The translations under genes and the position numbers were made by a program. A DNA stretch of 64,000 nucleotides, from positions 1 through 64,000 of the forward strand of contig JADGIG010000002.1 in NCBI GenBank assembly GCA_018985235.1, given 5' to 3'. How positions within the stretch are numbered: position 1 is the stretch's first letter; each line of letters opens with the position of its first letter. Source of the stretch: Sanchytrium tribonematis (Eukaryota). The notes under the pieces were generated by a model. It made no database searches. It was given only the letters and a program-made list of their open reading frames with translations, and was not told the DNA's origin. This document shows positions 3,773 to 58,996 of the stretch, piece after piece.

Positions 3773-5108
3773 ATGCCTAAGCTACATCATTTTGTTATAT
3801 CCATATTATTATCATCCGCTTTCATACTGAACTATACATTAAGAATCGAGTGTAAATCTGCAGCCCATCTGAGTCAAACTTTTCAAAAATTAAATATCCC
3901 ACATCTTCAGTGTCAATTTAATCACCATTCGTATTTTAGATATATTATTTTGCAACAAAGTCGAAGGAAACAGTTTTGCGAGTCTGAGACTTTTTTATAT
4001 GACTTGATGGATGGTCTGAATCTGCCAACTCATCAGACTTTGCAGGTTTTACTTGATAATGTTAATGTTTTATACGATAACATCAAAACAAAAATATGTG
4101 GAAATGACTTTAAAATTTTAATTACAGCGAATTTGCACAATAATGAAGATGTTTTATCCAATTGGCTTTATCAACTGTCTTTATTTATAGACCACATTGG
4201 GTCGAGTCGAATAACAATAAGTATTTTTGAGTCTGCATCATCTGACGGTACGAAATCTTTTTTGAAGCAAGCTGCTGAGCTCTTTGATAGTCTCAATGTG
4301 CGTTATAAAATCATGACATCTCCAGAACATAAAAACAGCCAGATGCATCGAATTGATTTTCTCGCGATGGAAAGAAATAAAGCCTTGAGACCTCTGTTGA
4401 ACGAAAATCATACACACGTACTTTTTTTAAATGATGTTCTTTATTGTCATGCAGACGTATTAGAATTGCTTCTGCAAGCTATACTTAATGACTCTGATAT
4501 TACAAGTGGGATGGATTATGATACACCTTTTATATCTCCTAGTTTCTATGACGTATGGGTGGCTAGGGATGTTCAGGGTGCACCTTTGACAAAACATCCC
4601 TTTGATTACGTTACAAATCACACTCGAAGTTTGCGGCAGATACAAGAGGGTTTACCTATGCAAGCTATGTGTACTTGGAATGGCGCTGCGGTGCTTAAGT
4701 CGAAGCCTTTCATTGAAAAGAATATTTATTTTAGGCGTGGGTATAATAGATTGGAAAATTTGAAAGAAGCTGGTGAGTGCTCTGCGAGTGAGATCACAAC
4801 CTTGTGTATGGATTTAATTAGAAATGGCTTCGATAAGTTTTTGGTGATTCCTCGTGTCAAAGTAATTTAATTTTATGTAGCTTGCCTACGATTTTAATAC
4901 GTATCACTCTATTAAGTCATCTTTATTTGCGGCCCGATTCCCTCCAAACAAGCCATTTACTTTAAACGAATCACTTCCATTTTCGTTTGAAAAACTAGCC
5001 TCTAAACACTTGTGTAATCCTACGTTCGACCGATGCTACGAAAGAAGTCCATGTAATACCACGGCATATTATTGGGAAGATGTTCCTAATTTAGATCGTC
5101 CTAATTGA
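3773..5108 (+). CDS. CAP59/CMT1-family (GT69) alpha-1,3-mannosyltransferase; exons 3773-4861, 4881-5108
   Basis: N-terminal membrane anchor. Motifs ANLHNNE, SIFESASSDGT, RIDFLAMERNKAL, FLNDV, FYDVWVARD, CTWNG, CSASE. Removing the intron restores PRVK|LAY. Confidence 0.85.
4862..4880 (+). other. 19-nt GT-AG intron
   Basis: GTAATTTAATTTTATGTAG contains the in-frame stop. Splicing gives PRVKLAY and 75 further open codons. Confidence 0.9.
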
Positions 5109-5139
5109 AATAATTACGCTGTTTTATTATTACGACCAC

Positions 5140-6427
5140 CTAGCCCCATGGATTATCTTGAAATTCGGGAATAAATTGATTGAAAGATGGGTCTGGTTTT
5201 TTACGAGGACTCTTTTTAGGTGACTGTGACTGAATTAACTTATCTGGTAAAGCCCACTCGTTACCTGAAGTAGCAATTGGTTCGATATGGTGTGCTAACT
5301 TTCCCATAGGTTCTTTGCTCATATTCGGTGTTATTGGTGGAGAAGTTGAATAAAAATCGCCAAATTCATTTTCAGATAATTTTTCGTTGTTTTCAATCTG
5401 AGGGATTGTTTTATTTTCTCCAGTGGTATTTGTATCATTTGAGGTATCTATAAAATTAAAATTTGTTGTAGCATTATCTTTATCATATGGACTTACAACA
5501 TAATCAGAACTACTTTTGCTTACCACTTTTTCATTAGCTTTTCCCAAATTTTGAAGTGAATTCTGATTATTAAATAAATCAGTCTTAGGATTTTCAAATT
5601 GAGTTGCAGGCATTGGGCTCGCATAAGTCTTTGAAGGTTCGGAAATATTTTGAGTTTCACCGAAAAAATCAAACGTTGAACTCAAAGACTTCTTTTGATG
5701 AGTGACTTCCTCTTTCAAGCCGGTGCTAGAATTACTGGCGTATGTTGAATTTGATGTCGAACTTTTTTTCTCTGTATCATTAGTAAAAAGCCCCAAAATG
5801 TCATTGCTGTTTAGTTTTGATTCTTTCTTGGTACTGGGCTTAGTATCTGAAAACATTTCAAAAGAAGCAAATAAGTTTTGCACAGGCGCTAATTTTTTCG
5901 TAGAATTAATTTCTTGTGGAGCAATCTCCATATTGCCGAAATCTAAAAGTTCATCTGCTCTAGATGCCGAAGTCAGGCTTTTGGATTGTGTCTGTGTGAC
6001 AGAGCCAACATGTATCAAATTAGGATCTGGGATAGGGCCCTCCCTACAATATCTTCTAAACTCGTATTTGCCTCGTATAAAGCTGTCCGAGCTCTCCCTT
6101 AAGGTACAATTGCCTTTTCCCTCCCAGTACCAATTTGCTTTCAAATTCCCCCAATTTTTTAAAAACAGGTAGTTTTCTTCCGTTAACAAATCAAGATCGA
6201 CAGACCTTACCTTACTCAAATGGACACCCAGACCTGTGTTAAATGGAAGTACCTCTATGAAATCCACTACATTTCGTGCAAATAAAACAGCCAATATTAA
6301 TAGAGCACCATCTGGCGTCTTTTTGACCGCAATCTGCACAGACTTCATTACCAGGTTCTCTAAGAAGAAGTTTTGCTAAATCCCTGTATTTGGTTCCAAT
6401 TTTTTCTCTTTCCGCACGCGTAGACAT
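5140..6427 (-). CDS. ArfGAP-domain protein (SMAP/AGE2-like); exons 6427-6253, 6233-5140
   Basis: CADC-x16-CTKCSGFHR|GLGVHLSKVRSVDLD zinc finger is completed only after intron removal. Low-complexity tail with DLF/DFF and NPW motifs. Confidence 0.9.
6234..6252 (-). other. 19-nt GT-AG intron
   Basis: GTACTTCCATTTAACACAG. Removal joins the two halves of the ArfGAP catalytic motif in frame. Confidence 0.95.
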
Positions 6428-6793
6428 TTTATGTTTCCAATTCCCCTAGTGTCATAATTAATCGTTGTTCCTTATTTCGCTATATTTTCAATTGTGTCTC
6501 TTCGTCTGCGAATCTTTTGCTTAACTGCAGCATCACATTATTTTGAAAAACAAAACAAATCAAGAATTTAAATTAAAGGAGTAAATTCGGATTTTGCTAC
6601 GATTTTCGTTAAATGGTCATTTACAAAGTATGCTTTTACACTTGAGATTTTTATCCCAGATATATTTATTGTCATATTTTATTCCTATATAAATGTGTAC
6701 TCAAAACAATTTGCAAGAATCTCGGGCATGAAAGCATTGGATCGGGAAATTTTTTTTCAGAAATTTTAATTGATAAGGAGTTTCCCTGTTTCA

Positions 6794-7531
6794 ATGTTGA
6801 CGACGAATATCTACACAGTTGACGACATTGAAAAGCTGCAGACTAGTAGCAGCGTACAATTTAAAGCATCAGTACCTGAATTGTTTACAATAAGTGCCGA
6901 TGATAAAGTTGTGAGATGGGTTCGTCAATTGAATTACAGCAATATGGATCAAATTGTTATTCTAATCAGTAGGGACATCAATGTCAATAACATTGAGATT
7001 ATGATTAAAACTGGCTTTGACAGAATTGTTCTAGATTATGAGTTCAGCAGTTTGTTCTGTAGCTGCTGCTTAATTTTGTTGCGGACTTATAAACTTAAGT
7101 ATATTTATTCTGAGATAATGAAATTCTGTCAGACACAATTTATCAATCGCCAACAATGGTCAGTATTACAAAGAATTTTAGAAATTAAAAAGAAAACTAA
7201 CAAGGAAGATGTTCCTAAGTTGGAGAAAAAGGCGCGTATGACTAAAAGACGTTCGTTCGCTACTATTTATCTTATAAGTAATTTGATGGAGATAAAATTT
7301 TTAGGCTTTTCAATTTACTTGTACATAATCAAGGAGTGCATTAAGTCATCTAACGTGGACGACCTTCAACTTTTAAGTTTATTGTTGGAATTATCTTATT
7401 TGAAAGTTGGTTATATATCTCAAATCGAAAAAGACAAGTTTTTAGAAGTAATCCCTACTTTGGAAAATTTGATTGAGGGCCACAAAATTGAGTTTAGTCA
7501 TATTGATATTTTGAAATCTTACATAAAGTAA
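6794..7531 (+). CDS. Hypothetical protein
   Basis: Long ORF; first ATG at 6794 is preceded by AGGAG. No motif recognised. Confidence 0.55.
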   Translation: MLTTNIYTVDDIEKLQTSSSVQFKASVPELFTISADDKVVRWVRQLNYSNMDQIVILISRDINVNNIEIMIKTGFDRIVLDYEFSSLFCSCCLILLRTYKLKYIYSEIMKFCQTQFINRQQWSVLQRILEIKKKTNKEDVPKLEKKARMTKRRSFATIYLISNLMEIKFLGFSIYLYIIKECIKSSNVDDLQLLSLLLELSYLKVGYISQIEKDKFLEVIPTLENLIEGHKIEFSHIDILKSYIK

Positions 7532-7543
7532 ATTAGTAGTCTT

Positions 7544-8266: not shown

Positions 8267-8584
8267 TTGTTTCAAATCTTATATGAGATAAAGTAAGGAA
8301 TAAATAATAAATCCACTTCAATAGCCCGCAGCAGTTTTATCAAAACTAATATTGAACTTTAGTAAAACTCCCGATAATTATCATAGATTTTCCCAGAGGT
8401 CTCCTCCTAGGAATAAATTAAAATTTACTGAATATATTAATGAGCTATGACTAAGAGATCTCGAAGTTATTATTAATCGACTATTTATTGACAATTTTTG
8501 AATTATATCAAAAACACTATTGGTCTCTACAATTGTACTAGGTTCACAAATTCGGATTGATGTATTTCAGAATCAATTGCGATT

Positions 8585-8773
8585 ATGAAACGTTCCGTAA
8601 ATAGTTCCAATTTTTCAGATTTCCAAAGTCGGAAAAAAATGAAGTCTCCAGTCCAATATAAACTAGAGGAACTGGAGGAAAATATAGCGCTCCATGAGGC
8701 AAAATACCTTCAACATACTTGGAATCAATTCAAATTTCTGCAAAATTTTGCCATTTTAGAAAATAAATTGTAG
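8585..8773 (+). CDS. Small hypothetical protein
   Basis: 62-aa ATG ORF filling an otherwise empty gap, convergent with SmG. Confidence 0.35.
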   Translation: MKRSVNSSNFSDFQSRKKMKSPVQYKLEELEENIALHEAKYLQHTWNQFKFLQNFAILENKL

Positions 8774-8795
8774 CTTTAATTAAAATTTATTCGAA

Positions 8796-9014
8796 TTATA
8801 CCGCCTCCAAGGCCTCTACAAGCAAAACGGAATTCCCGCGGACTACGACCATCCCCATTTCAGACGAATCCTCGTTGACGCAATCCGCTAGTACTATGTT
8901 CATAAATGGATCATAGCCACGAATTGTTCCCATAACAATCCGGTTTGCATTAAGTTTGCACTTCACTCTTTTATTCAAAAGTGGCTTCATGTCAGGTATA
9001 TTTAATTTAACCAT
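8796..9014 (-). CDS. SNRPG: Small nuclear ribonucleoprotein SmG
   Basis: LNANRIVMGTIRGYDPFMNIVL...GMVVVRGNSV Sm motifs typical of SmG. Confidence 0.9.
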   Translation of the reverse strand: MVKLNIPDMKPLLNKRVKCKLNANRIVMGTIRGYDPFMNIVLADCVNEDSSEMGMVVVRGNSVLLVEALEAV

Positions 9015-9088
9015 ATGTTTGATCCTTGGAAAAAATCAATATGCTAAAGTTATTTTATTTGTTTCTCAAACGCTTGGAGCGGTTAAGG

Positions 9089-10939
9089 TCACTGCCAGTT
9101 AGTTTTGGAGGTTTGCACTATATTATCATTAATTACTTCACCGTGCTTTTTACAAAAACAAATAAACGAAGAAAGTCTCTTTTCCGTCTCTAGAGCGTGT
9201 GCGTACCACCATTGATTTGACAACGGTATAGAAATTGCCTTTTGAAGGCTAGCTGAAATTGAAATATTATCTTTGACAGGCAAATTTTTTAATTTCAAAA
9301 GGAATTGGCTGGATTCAACGATACTTCGGTAACATTTCAAGCCTTGCTCGAAGGCGCAAATTGGATGCATCCAATTTTGACATCTAGTCACATCACATTT
9401 CACAGTTACTCCAGTAAATGACCCAGGGGCTGATTTGCAAAGCCCGCATAAATTATATACCCTATGCAAAAGATCTTTTTCAAGTAGCTCACAATAAACA
9501 AAATTTTCAAGACCCCAAAGGTTAACCGGGATTTCCCTAAATCGTTTGGACCTTATTGATAAAATTTTGCGCTCATCAATAGCAACAGCCACTTCTTTTG
9601 TAAACATTGCACAAACAATGTGGCAATAGCCTAATTTTTTATCCGAGTCTAAAAGCGGGATCATTGGGGACAAAATCGAGTCAATTTTTTGACAGACTTG
9701 GCATACAATTTTACCATTTTCCAACTCCTCAAATTCTTCTTTGTCTTCAAGAAGCAACTCTACGTCTCTATTGAGGCGCAATCTAATCCTTCTAGGGGCA
9801 TAAGGCACCTTATTTTTGAAAACTTTGACAAAATCTAGTGTCACCGAATCACTAATACAGGTGCAGGCCTTAGCGAATTCTCCAATAGAATTCGCCCATC
9901 TTTCCAAAGCAAAATTTGTAGCTTCTGCGCAATTAAACCCTGTATTGAATCCAGAATGATACGAATAAGGAAAAGTAACAATAAACTCTCCTGCATTTTG
10001 AAAAGTTTTTAAATATTTTATATTATTTGTGTCTAAAATACTAGGTGACAAGATGTATTTTTTGTGCCGCATGAATTCCTTACATTGAGGATTGTCTTGC
10101 TGAAAAAGATGACTGCAAAAAGTTTCAAAGCGTTGCATTTCATTTGGTGGAATAACATACCAAAATTTCGGTGCACCGAGATGCAAAAAATTGATAGAAT
10201 AAAGATCCATGTCTTCAAGGTGCCATGCGAAGGTTGATTTCCACATTCCAAAATATAGGTAAGGGGTATTCACACCTGGTATAATTGTATCGACCGACTC
10301 CAATAATCCCGGCAATTTTCGAAGATTCCAATGCTCGGGTAAATTGTCTGACATCAAACTCCCACTAAGATCTGCACCGTAAAAACCTGATGAATAAGCC
10401 AATGTTTGCCAGAATTGCTTCTCGAGAATCGCAATCTCGCTTTCGTCAAAATCGATACTAGTGTGTGGTTTATCATTTATGGTGCTTGCATCTAAGGTAT
10501 TGAGTTCTTTATGATAGTTTTGCAATTTCTCTGCGAGACTATTTTCTTTTCCTACAGACCCTTTAAAATAAGGGGGACAAGAAGGATGAGTGAACGATTT
10601 GTCCACCCATTCTCCAACGCTGTAGGTACTTTCCTGTTCGATATTTAGTAATTGGTAGAGCCCAGTGTGTCCCACTATTTCTTGCTCAATCGAATTTTTT
10701 ATGCTTATATTTTCTAGAAGAGCAACTGCTTCTGGCAGTTGAGAGAGATATTCAATTGGTGGTATAATTTTGACCAGGCCGTAAAATTGACCGTAATGAT
10801 TGTCAATAAATTCCATAAGTTTGATAAAGTGTTTAAATTGATTGTAATTAGGCTTAAATACTGGAATATCATAGCAGTATTCGCTTGGGGCTATGGCAAT
10901 ATCACAGTCGCATTGAGGGCATTCTGAAAAGTTGGTCAT
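9089..10939 (-). CDS. KDM4/Rph1-type JmjN-JmjC histone demethylase with C-terminal extended PHD
   Basis: JmjN (IPVFKP...GLVKIIPP), JmjC (GVNTPYLYFGMWKSTFAWHLED, HSGFNTGFNCAE) and a Cys/His-rich C-terminus. Confidence 0.9.
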   Translation of the reverse strand: MTNFSECPQCDCDIAIAPSEYCYDIPVFKPNYNQFKHFIKLMEFIDNHYGQFYGLVKIIPPIEYLSQLPEAVALLENISIKNSIEQEIVGHTGLYQLLNIEQESTYSVGEWVDKSFTHPSCPPYFKGSVGKENSLAEKLQNYHKELNTLDASTINDKPHTSIDFDESEIAILEKQFWQTLAYSSGFYGADLSGSLMSDNLPEHWNLRKLPGLLESVDTIIPGVNTPYLYFGMWKSTFAWHLEDMDLYSINFLHLGAPKFWYVIPPNEMQRFETFCSHLFQQDNPQCKEFMRHKKYILSPSILDTNNIKYLKTFQNAGEFIVTFPYSYHSGFNTGFNCAEATNFALERWANSIGEFAKACTCISDSVTLDFVKVFKNKVPYAPRRIRLRLNRDVELLLEDKEEFEELENGKIVCQVCQKIDSILSPMIPLLDSDKKLGYCHIVCAMFTKEVAVAIDERKILSIRSKRFREIPVNLWGLENFVYCELLEKDLLHRVYNLCGLCKSAPGSFTGVTVKCDVTRCQNWMHPICAFEQGLKCYRSIVESSQFLLKLKNLPVKDNISISASLQKAISIPLSNQWWYAHALETEKRLSSFICFCKKHGEVINDNIVQTSKTNWQ

Positions 10940-10943
10940 AAAT

Positions 10944-10948: not shown

Positions 10949-10966
10949 TAGTTATGAAAATCATAA

Positions 10967-12785
10967 ATGCCAACTGCCGTTTTAGAAGCAGAGGCGGAAA
11001 TTATCAAATTTTTGGAAGGAACAGATAAGCTTTCAACAGAGTATTGGCAATTGCAAAAGATTGTCAAGTTTATTCAATCAGGCAATTATTCCACAACACT
11101 TATTGGAATAGTTGCCATGAAAGATTTTGAGTTGGGTAGCGACAGCTTTTCTTTGGGACTAAAACACTCTTTTGGAATGATGGCACTTATAAACTTGTTG
11201 AAAACAAAAGAATATAGTTGTATTTGTGGCTCCTTTGAAATTTTGATTGAAGTAACAAAGAAGTTAATAGGATGTGTTTTATTCTCACAATATTGTGGCT
11301 TGGAGGTGCTGCTAAATTTGCTGGATGCTAAAAATGAAAGCCTTGTATCGAATGCATGTCTCTTATTGTCGCAAGTGTTGGCTTATGACAGAAATCAATC
11401 GGAATTTATAAAAGGAAATGGATTTCAAAAATTGCTCAACGTTTTGAATATTAGGTACGGTACTAAAATTGGTGAGCATTCTGCAAAAGCAATTTATATT
11501 TGTCTTGGAAAATTGGAGAATCGACAGTATATGGTGGGTCTTCCAATAACATTCTACGATAAAATGTTAAATTCAGGTTATAAACCGATATTGCCTCACA
11601 TTGTTGGAATATTGTCAAAAATGACCTCAGATAGAATTTTTCGTCGAGAATTTGAGGCTTATGGCTTATTAAAAAAATGCTTAGAATTTCTGCAGGACTC
11701 TGATGATTCTCAATTATTATTAGCTGCTTCCGAGGTTGTTAGTAATTGTGAGAGTAATGAAAAAAACCTCAATCTTATTAAGGAAAAAAATTTTATTGAT
11801 AAAATTCTATCGCAATTATTTAACTTGAATTTAAAAGAGTCAAGTACTATCTCTCTTCTAGGGGCACTGAAATTTGCCTCTGGAAATCTAGATCTATCTA
11901 AAAAATTAACAGAAGACTCGCGATTGATAGATTATTGTATACAATGTTTGGATTCGGAATCAGAAAATATTGCTGTTGCTTCTGTTTCATTATTGGTAGA
12001 ATTGGCTCGAGCTGATGACGGGAAGAAATTTATCAAGTCTAAAAATTTACTAGATAATTTTATTTTGATGTTGAAAACTACAAATGTTGATTTAATGGAG
12101 CAAATCGCTTACCTATTTGGAGTTTGCGCTCAGGATTCATCTTTATTAAAAGATTTATATGCAAAAGGTGGTGTAGGTTTCATGTGGTCCCTACTAAAGT
12201 CAGACCATGCGAATCTTCAAGCAGCATCTGCGCAGTCCATGGGACCTTTTATAGCCAATATTTCTAGTGGAAATGATTTGATTCGATCTTTTGTGGGTAG
12301 TGTTGAGCTTGTAGTGAATCTATTGAAGTCCAATAATACAAGGGTGTTATCCAGTGCCTGCCTTGCAATTTCCAACATATCTAAAGATCCCGAAAATTTA
12401 GAAATTGTGACAGACCAAGGCATTGTGGAACTTTTTTCTAATTTGGTGAAATTCGATGAGATAGAATTACAAAAAAGTCTATGTTTAGCCATCTCTTCGT
12501 GCTCATTATCTGCTAGAAACAGATCCCGACTAATAGAATTTAAATTACTTGATTTTATTATAAAATGCCTTCTTTCCTCAGATATCGATTTGAAAGTATG
12601 TGCCAGCAAAAGTGTTTTTGAATTTAGCAAAGACGGTCAATTTAATTGATATAGTTACCAATTGTGAAAAATTAAAGTCTGTTGAAATTATTAAAAGCTT
12701 AGTCGATTTGGTGTGTAATCCGAAAGAAGAAATTCACAGCGTTGCAGCTCAATCTTTAAGAAATATTAGAAAAGCTGTTAAATAA
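10967..12785 (+). CDS. ODAD2: Armadillo-repeat outer dynein arm docking protein (ARMC4/ODAD2); exons 10967-12635, 12655-12785
   Basis: 'EYWQLQKIVKF' and 'WSLLKS...IRSFVGSVELVVNLLKS...KDPENLEIVTDQG' match ARMC4 blocks as I recall them. Confidence 0.8.
12636..12654 (+). other. 19-nt GT-AG intron
   Basis: GTCAATTTAATTGATATAG. Removal adds the final ARM repeat (...AAQSLRNIRK). Confidence 0.9.
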
Positions 12786-12798
12786 ACAGTTTATTGTT

Positions 12799-14660: not shown

Positions 14661-15801
14661 TTAATTTTTGTCAAGGCTCTTCGATTCCTTGCTGTCTCTC
14701 CTACTAACGCTAGCTTGAATCCTTTTAGCGGCACGAACAGCGTTGACAGCTTTCTTAAAAGTTTTTTTGCACTTGTAATTCTCTATAAGTTCTGCACCTA
14801 CATCTTCTGAATGCATCCAAGAATGCTCTAGGGCACCTTCCATTGTAAGCCTAGATACAGGATCTTTCTCCAAAAGACGATTAATTAAATTTTTGGCATT
14901 GTCTGAAATGTGTCCCCAATATTCAGAATCGAATTCTGGCTCTAACTTAACAATTTCATAAAAGATCGCTTGTTGAGTTTCTCCATAAAATGGTACATAT
15001 CCGCATAATAATACATACATTATAACACCAACGGACCAAGAATCACACGGCTTTCCATATCCTTTCCGTAAAATTACTTCAGGCGCAACATATGCTGGGC
15101 TAAGTTATCATAAATTACGTTCCACAGGCAGTCTTCAACATTAAGTCGTCATTCGCAAGAACTTTACTCAGACCAAAATCAGTAATCATAACTTTGCCAG
15201 CAGGTAATTTTTCCGTCAATAAAAGATTCTCTGGCTTTATGTCCCTGTGGACAATATTTTGCTTATGTAAATACCAGACACCCTGCAATATTTGACGCAT
15301 AACTGTTCTTGCATCAGCTTCAGTAAAAGAGCCCCTGCCAACGATCTCTTGAAACAATTCACCACCTCTGGCAATTGGCATTACAAGATAAAAGTGAAGT
15401 GGGGTTTCAAAAATAGACTTTTCCGAACGCAAAGAAAGAATATTTGGATGCGAAACTTTTCTCATTATACTTATTTCGTCCCTTATACTAACTTTTCTTC
15501 CAGCCAGCTTTTGCTTATCTATGATTTTCATTGCAAATTGCTCATTTGATGATTTATCTTCTACAGTAACCACTTTTGCAAATGTTCCCTGGCCGAGGGT
15601 TTCTTTAATAGTGTAAAAGTATTCCACTGGAAATTGTTGAGAGAGCCTGCGTTCTCTAGGTTCTATTGGGAATAACATATCTCGCGGATTCATGAGCATT
15701 TCTTGATCAAGCTTTTCGACAGGAGATCCCTTTTTGGGTTCTTCTTCGTCATCAACTTTCATGTGTTTGAACTTTTCTTTTATTTTGTCGAAAAGCGGCA
15801 T
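14661..15801 (-). CDS. Ca2+/calmodulin-dependent protein kinase (CMK/CaMKI-like); exons 15801-15119, 15099-14661
   Basis: GQGTFA, HRDIKPEN, DFG, TACGT|PAYVAPE after splicing. CaM-binding tail FKKAVNAVRA. Confidence 0.92.
15100..15118 (-). other. 19-nt GT-AG intron
   Basis: GTAATTTATGATAACTTAG. Removal restores the kinase activation segment CGTPAYVAPE. Confidence 0.95.
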
Positions 15802-16559: not shown

Positions 16560-18806
16560 ATGTCGAGAAAATCACAAACGGACAGAGTCTACCCTGAAAG
16601 CTCAGCACGCGAACACTTAAGTCAAGATGGGCATTTGAAATGGGAAGGAAACCTCTATACTATACAAAATGGTAAATGGATTTCAAATTTGGTACAAGTA
16701 TTTTCAAAAATAATGACTTTAAAGTCTATTCTGGGTACTCGGCGAATAATTGTCAGTAATATTATAAAAATAACAAAAATTGTCAATGAATCTGAAGAAA
16801 GTCGCAAATACCAGTGCGAAATTAAACTGCTCGATGAGTGTGTTGTTTTTGCGAGCCCGAAAGAACATGTGATTCTTTATTTTATGAGAACGTTGACTAA
16901 ATTGCTGATATCAGAACAGAGCAAAGAGAGCATAACTAAGAAATTGTTAGATTCTGAAAATGTTGCAATTTCAAAGTCGGTATCTATAGTTCCCGAAAAA
17001 ATTCAAACTAATGTGATTAGAATAAAGCAGGAATATTCATTTAAGGTTGGGAGTTTGGAGGATCTACGAAATGATGGAGATATTACGTATAGGACTTTAA
17101 AAAGTGGTCCTAGAAAAGCCCGCCAAAGAAATAATACTAATAAGCCTTTAGAAACTGGAAAAGTAAGAAATATAATTGGCCAGTCGAACAAAAAGATCAG
17201 CGGCTCAGAAAAAAAATTACAGGAAATGATTGCGTTCAGAATGGTTAGTGGTAAACCCGAGGACGAGGAATTAGAAGATTATATAGAGCCTTCGACTTTG
17301 AAAGAAGAACTAGAATTTATAACAAATGTGGATTGGGCATTTGTATGGTCTATTTTCAATATTAAACCTTTCTTTGTTCCCGTCACAAAGCGCAAAATAT
17401 TTCTATATATACTCTATATACTGGTCGGTACGTTTTTATCGGGTTTTACAGTTTTACCTTCTGCGTATGACATACTTGCAAAATTTTGTTCTATCAATGC
17501 CGCTTTGCTTTTAGTTCAATTCTTAATGATTGATCCAAGTGTAGTGCTTGCATGCGTGCTATTGTGTCGATATCCGCCTTTGCCTAAAAAGCAAAGAAGC
17601 AATAAAGAGAATCCTACCATAGGTCTTATTATAACATGCCACAAGTCTGCCGATGCCATTACTGAAACGTTAAAAGCTGCACTTGTTCATCTTGAACCCC
17701 AAAATATTTTCATTGCTGACAATGGTAACCAGAAAGAGCCCATGGACAACACTAGAAGCATTATTAAAGGACTTGACCCGCGAATTAATTATAGATGGAA
17801 TAACATTGGCAACAAAACTCTGGCACAATATCTGGCAGTGAGAGATATTGATCGGAATCGTAAAGATATTGAGCATATTTTGATTATTGATGACGACGTT
17901 ACAATAAGTGCACATTTGAGATTTCCAGTTGAAAGAATAGAAGGGAACACGAAGGCTTTAGTTATCGGAATCAGGGGAGTTGACAACAAAGGTAAACAAA
18001 AGGTTTTGTGGACTAAGTGGCAAGATATGGAATACAAAGTCTCCGATTTTGTTAAGATATTTCAAGACCAGTATTGTTCCGTGATGTACCCTCATGGTGC
18101 GATTTCTTTATGGGACAAAAAGATTTTGCTTCAAATTTTAGTAGACCACGATGCCATTTTTTACGCTGATGATGTAAAAATGGGTATGTGGTTGACTCGT
18201 AGAGGGTATCGCTTAGGATATTATGCAGATGCGGTCGTCGATACAGAAACTCCAGAAACAATTCTTGGACCTTCACCTAATTATTATAATCAAAGAGTTC
18301 GTTCTTGGGATTTTGCAGAACATATGTAGTTTTAATTGATGTAGGCTAACCTGGAGATATATAAAATGCCTTTTACTAGGATATATTAGTGGTCAGCCTT
18401 TACAAACATTACTGCTTAAGTTCTTCCAACTATATTCTCTGTATACAAATCTAATCGATTGGGCAAAAATTCCAGGAATAATCTTTTATATGACACATCA
18501 GCCTGCCATTTTTGGTGTAACTTTTTCATCGATGCTTTTTCTCAACACGTGCTCTATTCTCGCATGGAATTACATTTCCTGCAGAAATCGACCTGATATT
18601 AGAATTCAGCTCACTACTATTTTAACATTTCCGCTATATAAGCTTATTTCCTCAATAATTAGAATAATATCTGTCTTTCGGTGTGCATTAGTATATTGGC
18701 CTCGGTATTTTATTTTCATTTTAGATTCAAGTCGAAAGATTTTAGACCAAAACTACTCACTGAAGAAAGAATCACTGATATAGAATTGTGGATGGAGAAA
18801 AATTGA
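16560..18806 (+). CDS. Membrane GT2 glycosyltransferase with PH-like N-terminus; exons 16560-18325, 18345-18704 and probably 18725-18806
   Basis: IADN, IDDD, YADD and QRVRSW motifs with flanking TM helices. Intron removal joins the 18490 ORF in frame. Confidence 0.8.
18326..18344 (+). other. 19-nt GT-AG intron
   Basis: GTAGTTTTAATTGATGTAG. Joins EHM|LTWRY and the downstream TM region in frame. Confidence 0.9.
18705..18724 (+). other. Possible 20-nt GT-AG intron
   Basis: GTATTTTATTTTCATTTTAG. Splicing moves the stop to 18806, 6 nt from the convergent gene. The putative branch A is at -7 rather than -6, and the unspliced frame is also open. Confidence 0.5.
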
Positions 18807-26117: not shown

Positions 26118-27666
26118 TTACTGAATAGCTCCCCAGATGCATATTTTACCATCATCCGAAGCACTGGCGAATAAGTTGGGTATGAACGAATTCCAAATTA
26201 CACAAGCAACAGGTGAATCATGGTGACCCTCCAAAATCTCAATCAGCTCTTCACTTGACTTCGACCAAACGTATATCTTACCATCTGTCGAACCTGTGGC
26301 TACAAACGAATCCGATTTTCCTCCGAATCCACCCTGTACAACATATTTATCATGGGAATGTCCAATAAATTTACCGCCGCATTTACCAGTAAATATATTT
26401 TTTACCCTAATTTCATTAGAATGGTAAGTTACCATGATTTCTGGGAAAATTTTAGATGAGGCTATATCAACTATGGCTTCCTTTTCTTTAAAAATTCGAA
26501 CAGGTAGCTTTGTTGAAAGATCAATCACATGAATCGCCCTTTCTCCGCTAATGACTATCAAATTATTACTGCCTGAGTCAATTGCGATCGAGGTTATTCT
26601 AGGCAAGTTCCATTTATGAATAATTTTGCCCCGTTTGTCCCACATTACAAGAGGTGAATTGGTACTGGACGTTATAAAGTCTCCAGTTGAAGTCCATTCT
26701 AGGCCAGTTATGTCTCCATTGTGTATTTCCAAAGATACCATAAGTTTCTTTTTCTGAATTAGTAAAAGAAACCTGTATATCCCAAAGTTTGACCGTAGCA
26801 TCCGTAGAACCACTAAGCAGATATTTGTCTTCCGGAGAAAATTTGATTTTTGTGATGCTTTCTTCGTGGTCATCAAATACAGCCAAGCAATTTCCTGCGA
26901 GATCCCAAACTTTAATTTTAGCATCCTTCCCCCCACTGGCAAAGTAATGTGTTTTGTTCCCCCATGCCAAAGCCCAGACTTCTGAATCGTGTCCTTGTAT
27001 CTGTAAGGACACTTTTCTGGGGAAAAATTCACTGCTGCATTTGTGGTCTTGGAACAATGAAAATTGGCAGTTATCAGAGTGATAAGTACAATTTTGCTTC
27101 TGGAGTTCAAAGGACTGCTGTAACAAATTTTCTAATCTATTCTGAGGAATTACTAAATTGCAAGGAAGATGCTCTTCGAGGTTTTGCATAATCTTGCAAC
27201 GCGTATTGGATATACTTTCATAACATTGATAAAGCTCGTTGTTTGAGCACATAATAAGCCTTGTAAATTGTTGCGTATATTTCTCTCCTATTGAAAAGGA
27301 TATTTTTCGCAGATATTGTAATGCATATAATCTGTTGCCTGACAGAATTTGCTCGAGAAGTTCTTGCCTATGGATTAATATTTTAAGTTCAAGGCCGTTT
27401 TCCAATTTCAAATCATCAATAGTGTTATAGACTGAAGACCAGTCACCCTCAATTATACCATTGCGGAGTTTCGAAACTTCTTTACTTTCCATTAATACAC
27501 CAGATTCACTTTGAAGCAATTTTGCAGTGGAAATGTATCCCATTTTTTGAAGTTGCAGGCAAAGAAGTCTAGTCAATTCTTTAGAATCAATAGTAATTCT
27601 TGACGAATGGTCCTCTATCTTGATCCTCTTTGATTTTGATTCATCAAATTCACCCCTTCTTCTCAT
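26118..27666 (-). CDS. WDR26/Gid7 (LisH-CTLH-WD40); exons 27666-26773, 26753-26118
   Basis: LisH (ELTRLLCLQLQKMGY..TAKLLQSESG), CTLH, IPQNRLENLL, CTYH and WD40 repeats. Confidence 0.88.
26754..26772 (-). other. 19-nt GT-AG intron
   Basis: GTTTCTTTTACTAATTCAG with a CTAAT branch motif. Removal fixes the frame switch between WD40 repeats. Confidence 0.92.
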
Positions 27667-29286: not shown

Positions 29287-29812
29287 TTATTCGTTTTTCT
29301 TATCAGCCGTATTTTTGATTTTCTCGACTGCAGCGTCGAACTTAGAACTTTCTTTCGTCAAAAATGGCTCAATGAGTTGATAAACCTTGACTGCGCCCTA
29401 AGTAAGTTCAAATTACATCGAATTGAGGCAAGCTTAAGTACAATAAGAATAAAACCTTAGCTGTGTAGTAGAATGGAATCCAACTCATCAAAATATCTGT
29501 AAAACTTTCTACAGTTGCAAATGTAGCATAAACTATCCAGTACGTTAACCATTTCGTATCGTCGTCCTTTTGTGTCGACTTAATAGCTTGCAATGACTTG
29601 TTAACGGGATATAACAAACCAATTAAGTTACTCAAAGCTTTTCCGGCAACATCAAGAATTAGCAAAAATGCACTTAATCCCATGACTGCCTCTGCAACAT
29701 ATGCCTTTGGAACTCCGTACTGCTTTTCGACCTGATTTAACAACGGATATCTTGATAAGTATTCATCAACGTTTTTGTGAAATGTCAGAGCTCTAGATTT
29801 AACTTGATCCAT
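29287..29812 (-). CDS. YOP1: ER-shaping protein Yop1/REEP5; exons 29812-29417, 29397-29287
   Basis: YPVNKSLQAI...DDDTKWLTYW...WIPFYY; LPQFD|GAVKVY after splicing. Confidence 0.92.
29398..29416 (-). other. 19-nt GT-AG intron
   Basis: GTAATTTGAACTTACTTAG. Removal restores the conserved 'PQ..GA..VY..I.PF' motif. Confidence 0.93.
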
Positions 29813-36527: not shown

Positions 36528-36529
36528 TA

Positions 36530-46481: not shown

Positions 46482-47802
46482 ATGACACCCAAATCTTTGA
46501 TTAAAGTTCAATCTGTAAGTTCGGGGAGCTTCAAATTTGCGAGGGAAGTTGCAAACGGTATACTTTCTTCTAAGAAGAAGGAGGAGTATTTTCCGAACGG
46601 GTTTTCAAAATTCATGGACAGTTTATTTTTAAATCCTTCATTTCAAATAACTGTTGTGCGGGAACTCGTATTTTAATTTGACTTAGGAGAGCCTTTTGAG
46701 TGACCCGGTAAAAAGAAATTTGGCAAAGAAGTACGACTTGGAAGAGCTCAGCCTTAACATTGATATTGACGATGAATCTAAAAGGGGGCATGAATTTCCT
46801 ATAATTGACAAAGAATTCCTATACCCGAAAGATTTGGACCTCAGGTTTCAGAGAGAATTCATTTCTAGATATTATCCACAACACCTACCAAAAGAAGATA
46901 AATATCTCACTCCAGATGGTAGGTACCACCCCAAAATGCTAATTTATAAACTTAAAAACAAATCATCGAAAAAGTTTTTGATGTATTTTTCAGGTGGTGC
47001 TTTTTTAATGAATCACCACACTATGTTTATGCATTTTCCAAAGTACTATCCCGAATATAATCTTGTTTTTGTGCAATATGGAATGTCTCCTGAATTTTCC
47101 TATCCGCGCGGAATTATTGATGCCATTGATGCCTATCATACAATTTGCACAAAATATTCACCAGAATCGATTGTTTTAATGGGAGACTCTGCTGGCGGAC
47201 ATTTGTCTCTTCAAGTAGCAGTTTATGTAGCTTTAAATTTTGAAAAAGACTACAGGGAAGAAGATGAAGCAATCGGCAGAAGTACTCGAAACCTGAGCAC
47301 GTTCTACCTAAAACCAGCATGTTTGGTACTTTTATCTCCTTGGACAGACATGACTTTAGAAGGCAGATCAGTTGAATATAATGGCAAGAATGACTCTATA
47401 AAGCCAAGTTTTGGTCTTCACAAATTTCGAGAGCTGTACCTGGGGCTTCCTTTAGAATCTAATCCTGAAAGAAAAGAATTACCTTTTATCCAAGCAGGTG
47501 AAAATCATTTCAGGACCATGCCCATGCTCACGGATGAAGATTTAAAAAGACCCCAATTTAGTCCCTTTTACTATGATAAAGAAATTTTGGCACTTCTTCC
47601 TCCAATTAACATTCAGACTGGTGATAAAGAAATACTACTTTCTGATAATGAGTCGATGGCTCTGAAATTAAAAGAAATCAAAGTTGATTGTAAATGGTCT
47701 GTTTACCCATTTCAAGTGCACATGTGGCAATCATTGCCCTGGATGGAAACGACTAAAGGAAGTTTCGAAGAAGGAAGACTATTTGTTAAAGAACATGAGT
47801 AA
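46482..47802 (+). CDS. Alpha/beta hydrolase (HSL-like esterase); exons 46482-46667, 46687-47802
   Basis: YFSGGAF, GDSAGG, LLSPW, E-I-L-L-S-D, H-M-W-Q. The upstream ATG exon joins via a 19-nt intron. Confidence 0.88.
46668..46686 (+). other. 19-nt GT-AG intron
   Basis: GTATTTTAATTTGACTTAG. Phase 0; supplies an ATG exon to an ORF that otherwise has no ATG for about 80 codons. Confidence 0.88.
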
Positions 47803-52260: not shown

Positions 52261-55021
52261 AAGCAGAATTGTTGGATAATAGAGACACCAAAAACACCAG
52301 AAAGTTGTCTGCTTTGCAGAAAATATTAGCTAATATGACAATGGGACAAGATATGTCCTTACTTTTTAATGAAGTGATTAATTGTCTAAGTTATAACAAC
52401 ATAGAAATGAAAAGGCTAGTTTATTTATATTTACAGCACTATGCTAAGCAGAAGCCGGATCTAAGCATAATGGTCATGAACAGTCTCACTAAAGATATCC
52501 AAGACATTAATCCTTTAGTTCAAGTGATGGCACTTAAAACAATTCCGTTTATTGCGAGTGACAAAACAACCAATTCCTTCACGGATGTTCTGAGAAAAGC
52601 CCTGCAGGAAAAGAATCCATATGTAAAAAAATCAGCTGTTATGTGTGTCGTCAAAATAACTCATTCTTTGGCTTTATCTGAGTCCGACCAAGACAAAGAA
52701 TGGGTTATACGAGAGGGTTTGTTGGATATAGTGAGATCATTGGTTCATGACCCATCACCTGCAGTTATGACTTGCAGCTTGACAGCAATTTCACAGATAT
52801 CTGAAGTTGTGCAAGACGTTAAGTTAGAAATCGATTTTGTTACAGCATCCAAAATTGCCACTGCATTAAATGATTGTATTGAGTGGCATCAAATCCAGGT
52901 TTTAGAATACCTTTTGAATTTTATTCCAGGAACAGAGGAAGATGCTCTAAGTATTTCAGATAAAGTTGCGAATAGACTTCAGCATTCGAATAGCGGGATC
53001 GTTTTAGCAACAGCTAGACTAATACTGTATCTTTCAAATTGGTTCAAAGAGGTTGAGACCAAACAAATCTATGTTAAAAAAATCTTGTCCCCTATGATTA
53101 CTCTTTTAAATCATTTCCCAGAGGTTCAGTATGTAGTTTTGAAAAATATTTTGCTAATAATTCAACAAAACCCAACATTTCTAAGTGGCTCTCAATATGT
53201 GAAATCCTTTTTTGTAAAATACAATGACCCAATTTATGTTAAACTCACGAAACTTGAAATTTTGGTACGCATAGTCGACGAAGAAAGTGTACCTCAGGTT
53301 GTGACTGAGTTAAAAGAATATTCTCAAGAAGTCGACATTGAATTTGCACGAAAGTCTGTAAGAAGTATTGGAGTTTGTGCCATGAAAGTGGAATCTATGG
53401 CATCAAAGTGTATCAATGCCCTGGTGGAACTAGCAAAAACTCAGATCTCTTATATTGTACAAGAGGTGATAGTAGTTATGAAAGATCTATTTCGCACATA
53501 TCCCAACAAATATGAAGGCCTTATTTCGCAACTATGTGAACATCTTTCAACCATAGAAGAGCCAGAAGCCAAAGCCTCTATGATATGGATCGTTGGTCAG
53601 TATTCTGATAGAATTGAAAATTCACTTGATGTATTGCAAGAATTTTACAACAAGTGGGATGAGGAACCTTACATTGTAAAACTGGCAATATTAATAGCAA
53701 TTGTCAAATCTTTCTTTTACAAATCCAAAATATTTGAAGCTATTCTAAAAGATATTTTGAAAAAATGTTCAGAAAGTTGTGAAAATCCAGATATTAGAGA
53801 CAGAGGTTTAATGTATTGGCGAATGATCTCAAAAAATCCAAAACAAGCAAAATCAATCGTGTTGAAAGAGAAGCCGGCTGCAAATATTGAAACGGCTGAT
53901 CTCGACGAAAATTTAATAATGGAGCTGATATTCTATTTTGGGACACTGCCCTCAATCACAACAAGAACCCCAAAGAGCAAGATTAAATACAAGCGGAAGG
54001 GAAAAGGTTACATTGGAAATGAAGACAATGGTCCGCTTCAAGTAAATCTTGCCTCGATTGAAGTGGACGATCGAGAGGTATTAAGCCCTGACGGTGGCTT
54101 TATGGTGTCCCCTGTTGATGAGTCCAATTTTCTGAACAAGTATAATCAATACTACGATACAAATTCCAATTCACCAGCTAAAACTAGTCCATCTGAATAT
54201 TTTTTACCACAGGATAATGGTCCAACTATTACCACTACTAACGACGATTCTGGTGAAGACGATATTGATCCAAGGGACATTTCGTCAACAAAAAGTATAA
54301 GAAGTGTTCCGTCAATTAGGAGAGACATTTGGCTCACTTCAGACATCGGCAATGGTTTGTCAATAGAAGGTTATTTCACAAAGCAAAGCAGCTCACTTAC
54401 TGCCAATATGTCAATTACTAATATGACTATCTCTCCAATCCAAAATTTTGCATTATTTTTCGATAAAAATCATTTTGGTTTAAGTCCGTCTGTCATTCCA
54501 AATGCCAATCTACCTTTAGGTCAAACGGCTGATTTCAAATTTGAAATTATTATAAATCCAGCCAAAGTTCTCAAGAAAGATACTTATGATAATTTTAATG
54601 TGCTTAAAGCCGCCATATCGACAAATAAGGGTAGTACTGTTTTTAGTATCAAAGTACCGTTAAAGTATTTGACTCTAGTTGCACCACTTCAATTAAATTT
54701 TGAGAAATTTATATTGGAGGCAAAAGAATTGGCTACACAAGGTCTTCCTTTGATCAAGTCACAATTTCCAATTCCAGTTATAAAACAAACAATTCCTAGC
54801 TTTGACGAGTCGGGCCTTTATATAGTGAACACCAATGAATCAAACGTATGTTTACATTTACTTAGGGAATTATTTTGTATATCCATGCAGTGTTATTAGA
54901 TGGAAACAAATTTTACTGGATCTTACAGTCTTCAAATAATCAAACGACAGTTAGTATGAGATCAACCGCAAAGTACGCGAATGAGTCTTTCAACACTACA
55001 TTCTGGTCTGATGTCTTGTAA
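52215..55021 (+). CDS. AP-1/AP-2 beta-adaptin; exons 52215-54845, 54866-55021
   Basis: MKRLVYLYL, FFVKYNDPIYVKLTKL, NPDIRDRGLMYWR and an appendage domain. Confidence 0.92.
54846..54865 (+). other. 20-nt GT-AG intron
   Basis: GTATGTTTACATTTACTTAG fits TNAYNYAG. Splicing adds 51 open codons resembling the appendage platform, ending at TAATAAA. Confidence 0.8.
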
Positions 55022-55039: not shown

Positions 55040-55934
55040 TCAGTGAATTACACTTGACAAAACTACTGCTAATATAATCAACAGAAAAATCATACATATG
55101 GATGAATAGCACATCCTCTTTCTATTTTTCTTTTGTTGCTGTAAAGCCTTGTCCATTTCCTGAACTCCTTTTTCTGTGTAGTCAACAGCCGCATTCACAT
55201 TTGTGTCAATTCTGGCCAACATATCCCCTTGTTGATTAACGAGTAAACTCAGGTCCAAAAACAGTTGTTGTAATTCAAGAAGTGATTTCTCGATTTTCAT
55301 CAAATCTTGATGACGCTCTTGTACTTCTGACAATACTCTTTGGGCTTCCCTTTGAGAAGAACCCATCATCTATATAAGTAAGTAGAACCTGCTGTGAAAA
55401 TAATGCATCTGGATTAGGAGAGTTTACAACATTATCGAGCTCTTCCTTCGTCGCACCAGGCTTAATTATCTTATATTGTTTCTCAATTTTGGTTTTGTAG
55501 CGATCCTTAAATTTGTTTTGAGTGTCATTGTACTTCTGAACTTGCTCTTGAAATTGTTTCGCAACCAAGCCGTGTTGAGTCACTCTGATTCTAAAGTCAT
55601 TCGTATTATTTTTACCTGCTTTTTCAAGATCTTTATTTTCTGCATCCATATCTTTCAAAATTTTCCTTATCTCGAAATTTACACCGCTAATATCAACCAT
55701 CAATTGCTCCACAATATCTCTCGTCTTTTTAGAGTCCTCGTCGCTCACCGCTTGGAGAGATCTATTATGAGAATCATCAACTTTATCAACTAAGGTTTTC
55801 AATTTATTCAGTAAACCTTTTACATGCTCAATCCTTTTCAAAAACTCATTACTTACACCACCTTCTTCAGCCTTAATTAAAGAATTAGAGCGGTCTACTC
55901 CATTAGAATTCAATTGATTCATTCTGTCTACCAT
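55040..55934 (-). CDS. Plasma-membrane syntaxin (Sso1/syntaxin-1-like); exons 55934-55389, 55369-55040
   Basis: Habc helices, SNARE motif (EVQERHQDLMKIEKSLLELQQLF...QG) and a C-terminal TM. Confidence 0.92.
55370..55388 (-). other. 19-nt GT-AG intron
   Basis: GTTCTACTTACTTATATAG. Joins Habc to the SNARE domain in frame. Confidence 0.93.
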
Positions 55935-56984: not shown

Positions 56985-56999
56985 TGGTTTTGCGGAGTT

Positions 57000-58412
57000 T
57001 TATTGTTTTTTCGATTTTTTTACATTATTGGTGCTCAGCGACTTCAATGATCTTTTGACAATACTGGGAAAGTTCTGCGCTGCCAAATTAACAAGATTTT
57101 CTCTACATTCATGATCAACGTTTAACTTCAAATCAGCTATCTGATCCAAAGAATCAGAAGCTTCATGGAGTACCAGAGCCTCTAGTTTAGTTCTTTGGGC
57201 CTCTAAAAAGGGATCTCTGAGTCCAAGGTGATCATCAATTTGGGTGTTATTTATGAGATCTTCAAAACCTTTAATCAAGGTATCTTCAACAGAAGTTGAT
57301 TCCGGAAGTGTGGGATATCTTAGATCGTCTATCAATGGAGCTTCAATTAGAAAGAATCCGCAAGGTCTAATTTGAAGTCCTTTTTTTATAATTTCTTGTC
57401 GAGGAATAAGCAAGCCAAGTCTGTTGACAGCTATTTTCGATAATCTAAACGATGCCAACAACCCGCATCGATTTTTTAAACAGGAGTTTAATAGAGCTGT
57501 AAAAAGTTTAGAGCTATTTTTAAATTTGTGGTCTGCAGGAAATATAAACCGGGATTCTTTTAAACTTAAAATTGGGTCATAGGTCATAGAAACCACTTTT
57601 AAAATGTTGATTCCTATTTCTCCAATGTTTCTAAGCTGAACTCTTTCTTCAGCAGAAAATTTGACGTGAATATTGCTTTCCTTCTTCCCAAATCCGTCCA
57701 TGATATATTCTTTGATTTTTTTTCTTTTGAGAATTGTTAGCGCTTCATCATTTTCAGTAAGCCTGATTGGCTTGGGCGCTCTAAATTGCTTGTACAGCAT
57801 ATAGGACTTGACTCCTATAACAATACTTCCAAAACGTAGAATGGTATCCGCCGAAGCTTTCTTCGGCTTCGATTCGAAAATGTTTAAATCTTGCGTCATA
57901 AGTTCTTTTAAATTTGAGTTCCCAATAAGCTGGCATTCTGAATTAAAGTCAGTAATATCTTTGAGTCTTGTGCTAATGATTGTAGAAGTCAGATCATAGT
58001 GATCATCGGTTACAAAGACTACATTTTTTTCCTCTTTAATATCCTTAATCTGTAGACTGATTAAAAATAAAACGTTCTGAAATGAAGACTCGCGCATTTT
58101 GCTTGATTTGGGTTCAAATTTTTGCAAAATTTTATACATATCTCGATTGCAGTCTTTCAAGGGAACTAAAATCCTGATTCCATCAAGATAAGCCTTTTTT
58201 TCCAGAGGATTCATGTCACTGGGCATTGATGCTTCCTCTTCTGGATAATTGAATAATATAATTCCCATTTTATGATTCAAATTTTCATAAAATAGGTCTT
58301 TAAGCCTAGTGAGAACAAGGAATTTATCGTATTTCTTATAATCAATAGCAAAGAGCACCGCCTGTTTTCCACTGGCCAAAATCTCATCGTCATTTGTTGT
58401 AAAAAATTCCAT
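57000..58412 (-). CDS. KU70: Ku70 (shortened, no evident SAP domain)
   Basis: AVLFAID (vWA), FIFPAD...SSKLFTALL, PQEI...PCGF..I..P..DDLR. Confidence 0.75.
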   Translation of the reverse strand: MEFFTTNDDEILASGKQAVLFAIDYKKYDKFLVLTRLKDLFYENLNHKMGIILFNYPEEEASMPSDMNPLEKKAYLDGIRILVPLKDCNRDMYKILQKFEPKSSKMRESSFQNVLFLISLQIKDIKEEKNVVFVTDDHYDLTSTIISTRLKDITDFNSECQLIGNSNLKELMTQDLNIFESKPKKASADTILRFGSIVIGVKSYMLYKQFRAPKPIRLTENDEALTILKRKKIKEYIMDGFGKKESNIHVKFSAEERVQLRNIGEIGINILKVVSMTYDPILSLKESRFIFPADHKFKNSSKLFTALLNSCLKNRCGLLASFRLSKIAVNRLGLLIPRQEIIKKGLQIRPCGFFLIEAPLIDDLRYPTLPESTSVEDTLIKGFEDLINNTQIDDHLGLRDPFLEAQRTKLEALVLHEASDSLDQIADLKLNVDHECRENLVNLAAQNFPSIVKRSLKSLSTNNVKKSKKQ

Positions 58413-58467
58413 TCAGTGTTTTGGGGGGATTCAAATCGGCCGATAATTTTAATTTCCGAGGCTATAG

Positions 58468-58996
58468 ATGGGTCCTGAATCACAAATTTTGCACCAGAAT
58501 GAAGAATTGAGCATTCAAGAAGAACTCTTAGCAGTTGCTCTAAAGATTAGTCCAAAAGCTTTAATGGAGTTGAAAGTACATATTTAATTTGATTCTAATA
58601 TAGGATATATTCAATTTGGTGGATTCAGATCACGGCGGATCAATCGAGTCCGATGAGCTTGGTATGTTGATGCAAACTTTGGGAATGAAAAAGGAAAGAA
58701 TTAATGAAATCACTGACAAAATCATGAAAGATTTTGGAAACACAAATTCCATCGACTTTCCATCATTTTGCAAAGCAATGGTTAAACCGGAATCTCCAAG
58801 CCAGGACAAGCAAGATATAGAGCAAGCTTTTTATTCCTTATTTGGGAAACAAACCATCGAGGTAAGCACAATCAAGGAAACTTTAAAATTATGCGCCAAA
58901 GATGATGATTTTGACAAGATTATTGAAGCCGTGTTTCCAGGCGACAAAATTAATATTTCCCAGTTTATAGAATCTAATTTATATAACTTAAATTAA
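58468..58996 (+). CDS. Calmodulin/centrin-like EF-hand protein; exons 58468-58575, 58604-58996
   Basis: ELK|DIFNLVDSDHGGSIESDEL is formed only after splicing. The later EF-hands are degenerate. Confidence 0.8.
58576..58603 (+). other. 28-nt GT-AG intron
   Basis: GTACATATTTAATTTGATTCTAATATAG, with CTAAT-A-TAG end. Confidence 0.85.

Follow-up and report, generated by a model that had tools for sequence, protein, structure and literature searches.

Probable spliceosomal introns of about 19-20 nucleotides in the sanchytrid fungus Sanchytrium tribonematis

Introduction

Very short introns measure 15-16 nucleotides (nt) in heterotrich ciliates, 16-17 nt in Mikrocytos and 18-21 nt in nucleomorphs (PMC10245619; here and below, statements on other organisms refer to the available portions of the cited papers). 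In the heterotrich Stentor coeruleus, whose introns are 15-16 nt long, the branch A lies at position 10 of 15, that is, at -6 (PMC9505925). Among Fungi, Cryptococcus has introns of about 56-63 nt (PMC11913375, PMC8476143). Here we analyse a stretch of 64,000 nt from Sanchytrium tribonematis (contig JADGIG010000002.1, positions 1 to 64,000 of the forward strand; hereafter the window), a member of the alga-parasitising sanchytrids, the sister group of Blastocladiomycota, in which twelve GT-AG inserts, mostly of 19 nt, interrupt eleven genes. The inserts are likely spliceosomal introns, and very probably U2-type introns that have shrunk to about 19-20 nt and are recognised mainly by distance.

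The resemblance to described systems is partial in each case. As in Stentor, the inserts are bounded by GT and AG, are AU-rich, have a weak branch consensus with an A nearly fixed at -6 and a narrow length peak, and most spliceosomal proteins appear to be kept; unlike in Stentor, they measure 19-20 nt, with a predicted lariat loop of 14 rather than 10 nt, belong to a fungus with a compact genome and are known from DNA sequence alone. Mikrocytos mackini is likewise a parasite with near-minimal, narrowly sized introns in housekeeping genes, but its 224 introns are highly conserved in sequence and its spliceosome has 17-19 proteins (PMC10245619), whereas the sequences here are loose, the extrapolated number of introns is about 2,000, and the sanchytrid Amoeboradix gromovi keeps U1-70K, U2AF and SF1. 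The closest length range is that of chlorarachniophyte nucleomorphs (18-21 nt), relict endosymbiont nuclei whose roughly 300 genes contain over 800 introns (PMC10245619), in contrast to a main nucleus with such inserts in 11 of 55 genes. Microsporidia are also reduced parasites of fungal lineage with short GT-AG introns, but the 37 introns of Encephalitozoon cuniculi vary in length from 22 to 76 nt and have strict motifs (PMC3629993), and the sanchytrid length mode lies below that minimum. Finally, the introns of myxozoans and dicyemids (median 22-27 nt) were once dismissed as annotation error and are supported by long-read RNA (PMC13644364); they share with those described here a convergent shortening in parasitic opisthokonts and reduced splice-site motifs, although their bearers are animals and their medians longer. 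The independent origin supposed in the original prediction from the DNA follows, with respect to ciliates, rhizarians and nucleomorphs, from the established tree of eukaryotes.

Microsporidia are the only fungi named in the exception list of PMC13644364, as far as that list was available. Our literature search, with most subscription journals outside its scope, found no report on sanchytrid introns: the available text of PMC10158995 has no mention of 'sanchytr', that of PMC10459994 contains 'intron' in a reference only, and the accessible main text of PMC8371127, the source of published sanchytrid proteins, in a reference title only. We think it probable that these tiny introns have gone unreported, and they are probably shorter than any previously described from Fungi.

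Results

Twelve short inserts interrupt eleven genes

All twelve elements that had been put forward as introns start with GT and end with AG at the coordinates of Table 1. Nine are 19 nt long, two 20 nt and one 28 nt, with seven on the plus and five on the minus strand. Excision lengthens or rejoins a reading frame in every case (12/12), and in eight inserts an in-frame stop begins at most 11 nt after the donor. Longer in-frame GT-AG alternatives exist at every junction. Removal of the second glycosyltransferase insert makes the protein just one amino acid longer, but replaces its C-terminus.

Table 1. Inserts and associated features of the window. Protein lengths are in amino acids (aa); snRNP, small nuclear ribonucleoprotein.
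Feature	Gene span	Intron	Strand	Length (nt)	Phase	Spliced vs unspliced (aa)	Remarks
CAP59-like mannosyltransferase	3773-5108	4862..4880	+	19	0	438 vs 365	
ArfGAP	5140-6427	6234..6252	-	19	1	422 vs 62	
Armadillo-repeat (ARM) gene	10967-12785	12636..12654	+	19	1	599 vs 560	
CaMK-like kinase	14661-15801	15100..15118	-	19	2	373 vs 228	within CGT-PAYVAPE
Family-2 glycosyltransferase, intron 1	16560-18806	18326..18344	+	19	2	734 vs 589	lengths with first intron out
Family-2 glycosyltransferase, intron 2	16560-18806	18705..18724	+	20	2		
WDR26-like gene	26118-27666	26754..26772	-	19	0	509 vs 350	Pfam LisH_WDR26
Yop1/REEP	29287-29812	29398..29416	-	19	0	168 vs 134	
Alpha/beta hydrolase	46482-47802	46668..46686	+	19	0	433 vs 64	
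Beta-adaptin	52215-55021	54846..54865	+	20	0	928 vs 894	near 3' end
Syntaxin	55040-55934	55370..55388	-	19	0	291 vs 219	between Habc and SNARE domains
Calmodulin-like EF-hand gene	58468-58996	58576..58603	+	28	0	166 vs 39	
Candidate thirteenth intron		9118..9136	-	19			last codons of JmjC gene; GT-AG, full motif
SmG, core snRNP protein	8796..9014		-				PDB best matches snRNP G, E 5e-16; Pfam LSM

Splicing of the candidate thirteenth intron would exchange a tail of 15 aa for a basic tail of 20 aa, and this element may be a chance match. For the short end of the zf-DNL gene an intron was considered and rejected in favour of a natural terminus.

Homologous proteins fix or bracket the length of seven inserts

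Comparison with homologues fixes the insert length at five of the twelve junctions and brackets it at two more. For the kinase, a cut of 19 nt tops 49 splice variants evaluated against seven full-length kinases (702 vs 661), and for the WDR26-like gene it tops 29 variants, with a gapless alignment to the intron-free relative P0140. At the first glycosyltransferase junction 19 nt tops 36 variants and is gapless against the intron-free relatives P0160-P0162; at the second, 20 nt tops 54 variants, and the spliced C-terminus fits P0160, P0161 and P0162. The doubly spliced product can be aligned gaplessly with P0160 (residues 238-735) and with P0161 (residues 245-734). Exon 1 of the ArfGAP matches Pfam ArfGap 4-44 and exon 2 matches 46-115, the single junction codon lying between them, and the spliced syntaxin is contiguous within one residue on syntaxin-1A and Sso1/2 of the PDB. 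The repeats of the spliced ARM protein begin at residues 433 and 556, so that the 41-residue spacing (here 3 x 41) is preserved across the junction. For Yop1, the Pfam match ends at position 63 of 77, at the junction, and a PDB search gave nothing useful; exon 2 of the EF-hand gene begins inside the first EF-hand, its residue 2 falling on calmodulin 15-16. PDB searches with both flanks of the beta-adaptin junction gave nothing useful either.

The inserts might also be introns by origin but poorly spliced, with truncated products or decay tolerated as in microsporidia. Precedents exist, since a median of about 25% is cited for the splicing of short microsporidian introns (PMC13644364) and the 16-nt introns of Mikrocytos are 63% spliced (PMC10245619); moreover, the donors here are without the usual G at +5 (present in 1/12) and three introns lie near C-termini. 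However, several inserts cut catalytic or structural cores (the activation loop of the kinase, the zinc finger of the ArfGAP, the syntaxin before its SNARE motif), and exon 2 of the kinase is conserved in a relative. We consider such tolerated mis-splicing very unlikely; a partial efficiency of splicing is compatible with U2-type introns recognised by distance.

A common 3' motif with a branch-like A

Aligned at their 3' ends, 11 of the 12 inserts share the pattern T(-8) N A(-6) Y(-5) N Y AG, which was not a criterion in their original selection. Over 200,000 shuffles of the insert interiors, the full motif was found in at most six inserts per trial, against the 11 observed, and an A at -6 alone reached 11 inserts once. 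The exception is 18705, where T-N-A-Y is shifted one base 5' and the A stands at -7. Counted from the donor, the branch-like A falls on position 14 in 10/12 (18705 and the nine 19-mers), and it is at -6 in the 28-nt insert 58576..58603 as in 4862..4880. Three nt separate the A from the AG in 11/12, which leaves no space for a pyrimidine tract downstream of the branch. A GT donor and a YAG acceptor are present in 12/12, the donors follow GT(A)-W-T-T, and the 5' half is U-rich. The 28-nt intron has two branch-like motifs 6 nt apart, as though a small duplication had made it longer.

Taken alone, the plain pattern GT-(15 N)-AG with YAG shows no enrichment (141 occurrences). When motif matches of 12-60 nt inside open reading frames (ORFs) were counted, there were 16 of 19 nt and at most 6 of every other length, a peak that is partly circular because nine of the 16 are the predicted inserts from which the motif was derived. 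Fourteen acceptors found in this way extend a frame by at least 15 codons: 11 belong to the predicted inserts, whereas the other three sit at the end of a gene or on a non-coding strand. No frame-extending match had a length of 18, 21 or 24 nt, a test that stop-free introns of those lengths escape, and no insertion of 6-7 residues was found in the conserved parts of the four genes compared with relatives. Two other searches were discarded: a weight matrix trained on the twelve inserts was circular and gave extra matches mostly on non-coding strands, and a coding-score scan of all GT-AG pairs was too noisy, with 86 candidates, many of which fused neighbours while several true junctions were missed.

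U12-type introns have the donor RTATCCTT and the branch CCTTAAC. None of the twelve donors fits the former, and three KEGG labels specific to the minor spliceosome had no match in the available A. gromovi table.

Introns of the HAC1 type, which measure about 20 nt in filamentous fungi, are cut by Ire1 in two CNG-CNG stem-loops, and their ends are not GT-AG. Their similar length, and the shift of frame by one that 19 nt produce, would speak for a removal or bypass of the inserts independent of the spliceosome, whether by cleavage of the Ire1 type, by an endonuclease of the tRNA type or by ribosomal frameshifting. We hold this to be highly improbable, given the GT...YAG ends with a branch-like A in all twelve inserts, the early in-frame stops in eight of them, and the homologues, which align without inserted residues.

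Shared and unshared positions in relatives

The kinase is broken after the same Cys-Gly-Thr in all four close relatives (79-86%). Three of these come from ENA assemblies, and the fourth, P0130 (80%), the closest kinase homologue with a species name, is an entry in the A. gromovi sheet of PMC8371127 (as available), where the gene is annotated as two separate proteins. The contig of P0130 also carries the second half of the kinase, a WD-repeat gene and an aspartate-semialdehyde dehydrogenase, and the kinase and these two genes stand together at 14661-28784 of the window. In a tree of RPC40, the protein of the window groups with three ENA proteins on a long stem (length 0.99), in a placement that is weakly supported. 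The kinase homologue, the gene order and the G+C content by themselves make a sanchytrid other than A. gromovi the likely source of the window, with S. tribonematis as the natural candidate.

In two relatives the length can be read from the peptides. The kinase peptide of P0131 continues past the break in a shifted reading frame of exon 2: with the donor kept at the same base, among lengths of 8-59 nt, only a GT-AG intron of 20 nt fits, with 50 of 51 exon-2 residues, whereas 45 and 59 nt allow four. P0163, a glycosyltransferase relative (56%), decodes to an intron of 20 nt with a score of 63 vs 7 for the runner-up, at a site nine codons upstream of the first glycosyltransferase intron of the window. 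Both peptides force an A at -6. Among 149 glycosyltransferase matches, 24 had early-ending tails; with lengths not divisible by 3 as the range tried, a clean decoding resulted for one of these and no clear length for the other 23.

Other positions are not shared. P0160, P0161 and P0162 lack both glycosyltransferase introns, and P0140 lacks that of WDR26. Since P0160 and the broken kinase P0128 are on ENA contigs of 5208 nt, and thus likely on one genomic contig, the absence in P0160 is unlikely to stem from spliced RNA. P0140 ends about 80 residues early, at a site that is intron-free in the window; a phase-0 intron of 21 nt carrying the full motif is compatible with its last six residues and stop, a fit that 0.26% of random hexapeptides achieve. 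The window lacks an intron at the sites occupied in P0163 and perhaps in P0140, and intron positions therefore change within the lineage; on the evidence of these relatives, gain and loss would look alike. A system of tiny introns likely spans the lineage, with 20 nt in two relatives, one common position and several unshared ones. In JGI metagenomes, the kinase alignment returned no relative among 100 pattern matches, and the RPC40 alignment three distant loci (38-45%) outside the lineage; a search of viral contigs yielded no relative.

The original prediction of near-minimal introns in a fungus is borne out by GT-AG inserts that behave as introns. Its further claim of a fixed length holds as a narrow peak within the window; genome-wide it is not supported, given the 28 nt here and the 20 nt, perhaps also 21, in relatives.

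It could still be argued that the introns are real and the window unrepresentative, lengths across the genome being those of an ordinary fungus with a tail of short introns, served by an unremarkable spliceosome. The sample of only twelve introns, one of them of 28 nt, and the core factors kept in A. gromovi are in favour of this view. We regard it as very unlikely: none of the 55 genes (0/55) needed a long intron, the spacers are too short to conceal one, the frame-extending scan led back to the predicted inserts apart from the three matches located as described above, and two relatives give 20 nt.

Assembly check and truncated public annotation

A contig of 21.8 kb from a DNA run (depth 109) is identical to positions 2889-19000 without gaps, in a comparison of positions 1-19000, and spans 6 of the 12 inserts. 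Because this contig may be where the window came from, its agreement bears on the assembly alone, and over that interval. The run is a single one, and the published sanchytrid genomes come from whole-genome amplification, so that the inserts might be thought artefacts of assembly, amplification or pseudogenes, that is, chance insertions resembling introns. This is most improbable and already largely refuted by the same kinase break in four other organisms, three of them from ENA assemblies, by the constant places of GT, AG and branch motif, and by the identity of the contig across six inserts.

ORF calling by TransDecoder ignores introns. Sanchytrid proteins were predicted with this program on genomic contigs (PMC8371127, available part). 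Of 13 unspliced fragments looked up, 12 are exact single-member entries of EukProt, covering 10 of the 11 genes, and the unspliced EF-hand fragment was not found there. Unspliced fragments stand as EukProt entries as a result of this intron-blind calling. The expectation that gene predictors would mis-annotate these genes was therefore right as to the outcome, truncated genes, but wrong as to the cause, which is intron-blind ORF calling and not a minimum-length setting.

Spliceosomal factors and a possible ruler-like recognition

In its available part, the A. gromovi table lists Prp8, SF3B1, U2AF1, U2AF2, SF1 and U1-70K, together with Prp16, Prp22, Prp17, Yju2, Cwc25 and Isy1 (PMC8371127). Under seven labels, Slu7 and Prp18 had zero matches in the same part of the table. 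For these look-ups we took the KEGG and KOG numbers used as labels to be those of the spliceosomal factors named. The original prediction held that introns so small need a modified spliceosome, a claim not borne out by a table that still lists the core factors. The best reading is, in all likelihood, a largely complete major spliceosome that measures distance, with specific modifications as predictions.

The window encodes SmG (Table 1), and the organism thus possesses a subunit of the Sm ring. It also encodes a Ski2-like helicase of 1373 aa (29846-33967, minus strand), which is nearer Slh1/ASCC3 than Brr2; its best stretch covers about 90-975 on chains of 1800-1970 aa, and its second cassette may be shortened or diverged. 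This affinity makes it uninformative on the spliceosome, and the 'BRR2' label of the A. gromovi table was left uncounted.

During splicing, U2 bulges the branch A and U6 pairs with donor positions 4-6. Recognition of the sanchytrid introns might work as a ruler set by the GT donor, the branch-like A at position 14 and the AG three bases further. With U2 paired over positions 9-15 and U6 over 4-6, a linker of about 2 nt would remain, and the lariat loop would be of 14 nt, where Stentor copes with 10. The three bases between A and AG and the lack of a pyrimidine tract imply that the acceptor is likely chosen by distance. An acceptor that docks without scanning would make Slu7 and Prp18 dispensable, and they may have been lost; yeast ligates exons without Slu7/Prp18 at a branch-acceptor spacing of 7 nt (PMC3683925, available part). 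A deletion bias in a compact parasite genome could have driven lengths down to the floor of this spliceosome.

Several points weigh against U2-type introns measured by such a ruler. One window amounts to about 0.6% of such a genome, and we know the inserts only as DNA. The lengths in the CAP59-like, Yop1, hydrolase, beta-adaptin and EF-hand genes are not fixed by homology, their basis being frame rescue and the common motif; alternative cuts exist at 25 and 37 nt in the CAP59-like gene and at 22, 31 and 34 nt in the hydrolase. In the WDR26-like gene 19 nt wins narrowly (1123 vs 1114 for a cut of 25 nt). The motif was derived from the same twelve inserts, leave-one-out scores are 1.6-3.9 bits for 7 of the 12, and chance matches occur in open frames too. 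The intron lengths of relatives are deduced from peptides, and the lineage of P0163 is loosely placed (support 88). The blanks for Slu7 and Prp18 are weak, as about half of sanchytrid proteins are annotated and the labels for U1C and Cwc15 likewise have zero matches in the available A. gromovi table; besides, C. merolae lost both Slu7 and Prp18 despite long branch-acceptor distances. Lastly, there is no small nuclear RNA (snRNA) within the window.

Gene content of the window

The window has a G+C content of 34.7%, against published values of 34.64% for S. tribonematis and 36.27% for A. gromovi. It holds 55 genes, in a list compiled by hand from ORFs and Pfam matches, and the density of introns is about 0.2 per kb of coding DNA. 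From 3.7 to 64 kb, 94% is covered by genes and the median spacer is 31.5 nt; on the same hand-made list, 9 of 54 adjacent gene pairs overlap by 7-47 nt over 3773-64000. Positions 1-3700 contain zero ORFs longer than 100 aa and zero Pfam matches, and contig depth there ranges from 140 to 730 over several short contigs; it is likely a repeat-containing or subtelomeric stretch. Scans of the window for tRNA and with Rfam gave zero matches, and no rRNA was found within it. A 21-kDa subunit of complex I is encoded in the window (Pfam), as is a mitochondrial calcium uniporter at 23453-24268 (plus strand). The complex I subunit fits an aerobic mitochondrion. Rozella, a candidate source by its G+C content, was set aside, since it has lost complex I and since the proteins of the window occur in EukProt only. 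Relatives of the family-2 glycosyltransferase are patchy in distribution and include one from the ichthyosporean Abeoforma (P0167).

Discussion

We propose, tentatively and with more doubt than confidence, that a whole phylum has reached the geometry of Stentor, with about 2,000 introns of 19-21 nt per genome, the shortest system in Fungi, handled by a ruler-like major spliceosome that lacks Slu7/Prp18 and has dropped the pairing to donor G5, and with new introns of 19-20 nt still being gained. That a ciliate and a fungus both place the branch at -6 suggests a physical optimum common to the two. How the spliceosome can be accommodated on a short RNA determines the minimum length of an intron. 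The sanchytrids would provide a further independent case, in a fungus whose distance from the yeast model is much smaller than that of ciliates or rhizarians, and a direct test is possible, on contacts altered at a lariat loop of 14 nt with the acceptor 3 nt past the branch. With some positions common to relatives and others not, it is possible to trace how minimal introns arise and disappear.

There are also consequences for the published proteomes. Ten of the eleven intron-bearing genes are truncated in EukProt. If this proposal is true, about one fifth of published sanchytrid proteins would be truncated and claims of gene loss for the phylum would have to be redone; should some 20% of genes be affected across the genome, as 11 of 55 are here, errors would be expected in domain counts and in inferences of gene loss for the phylum.

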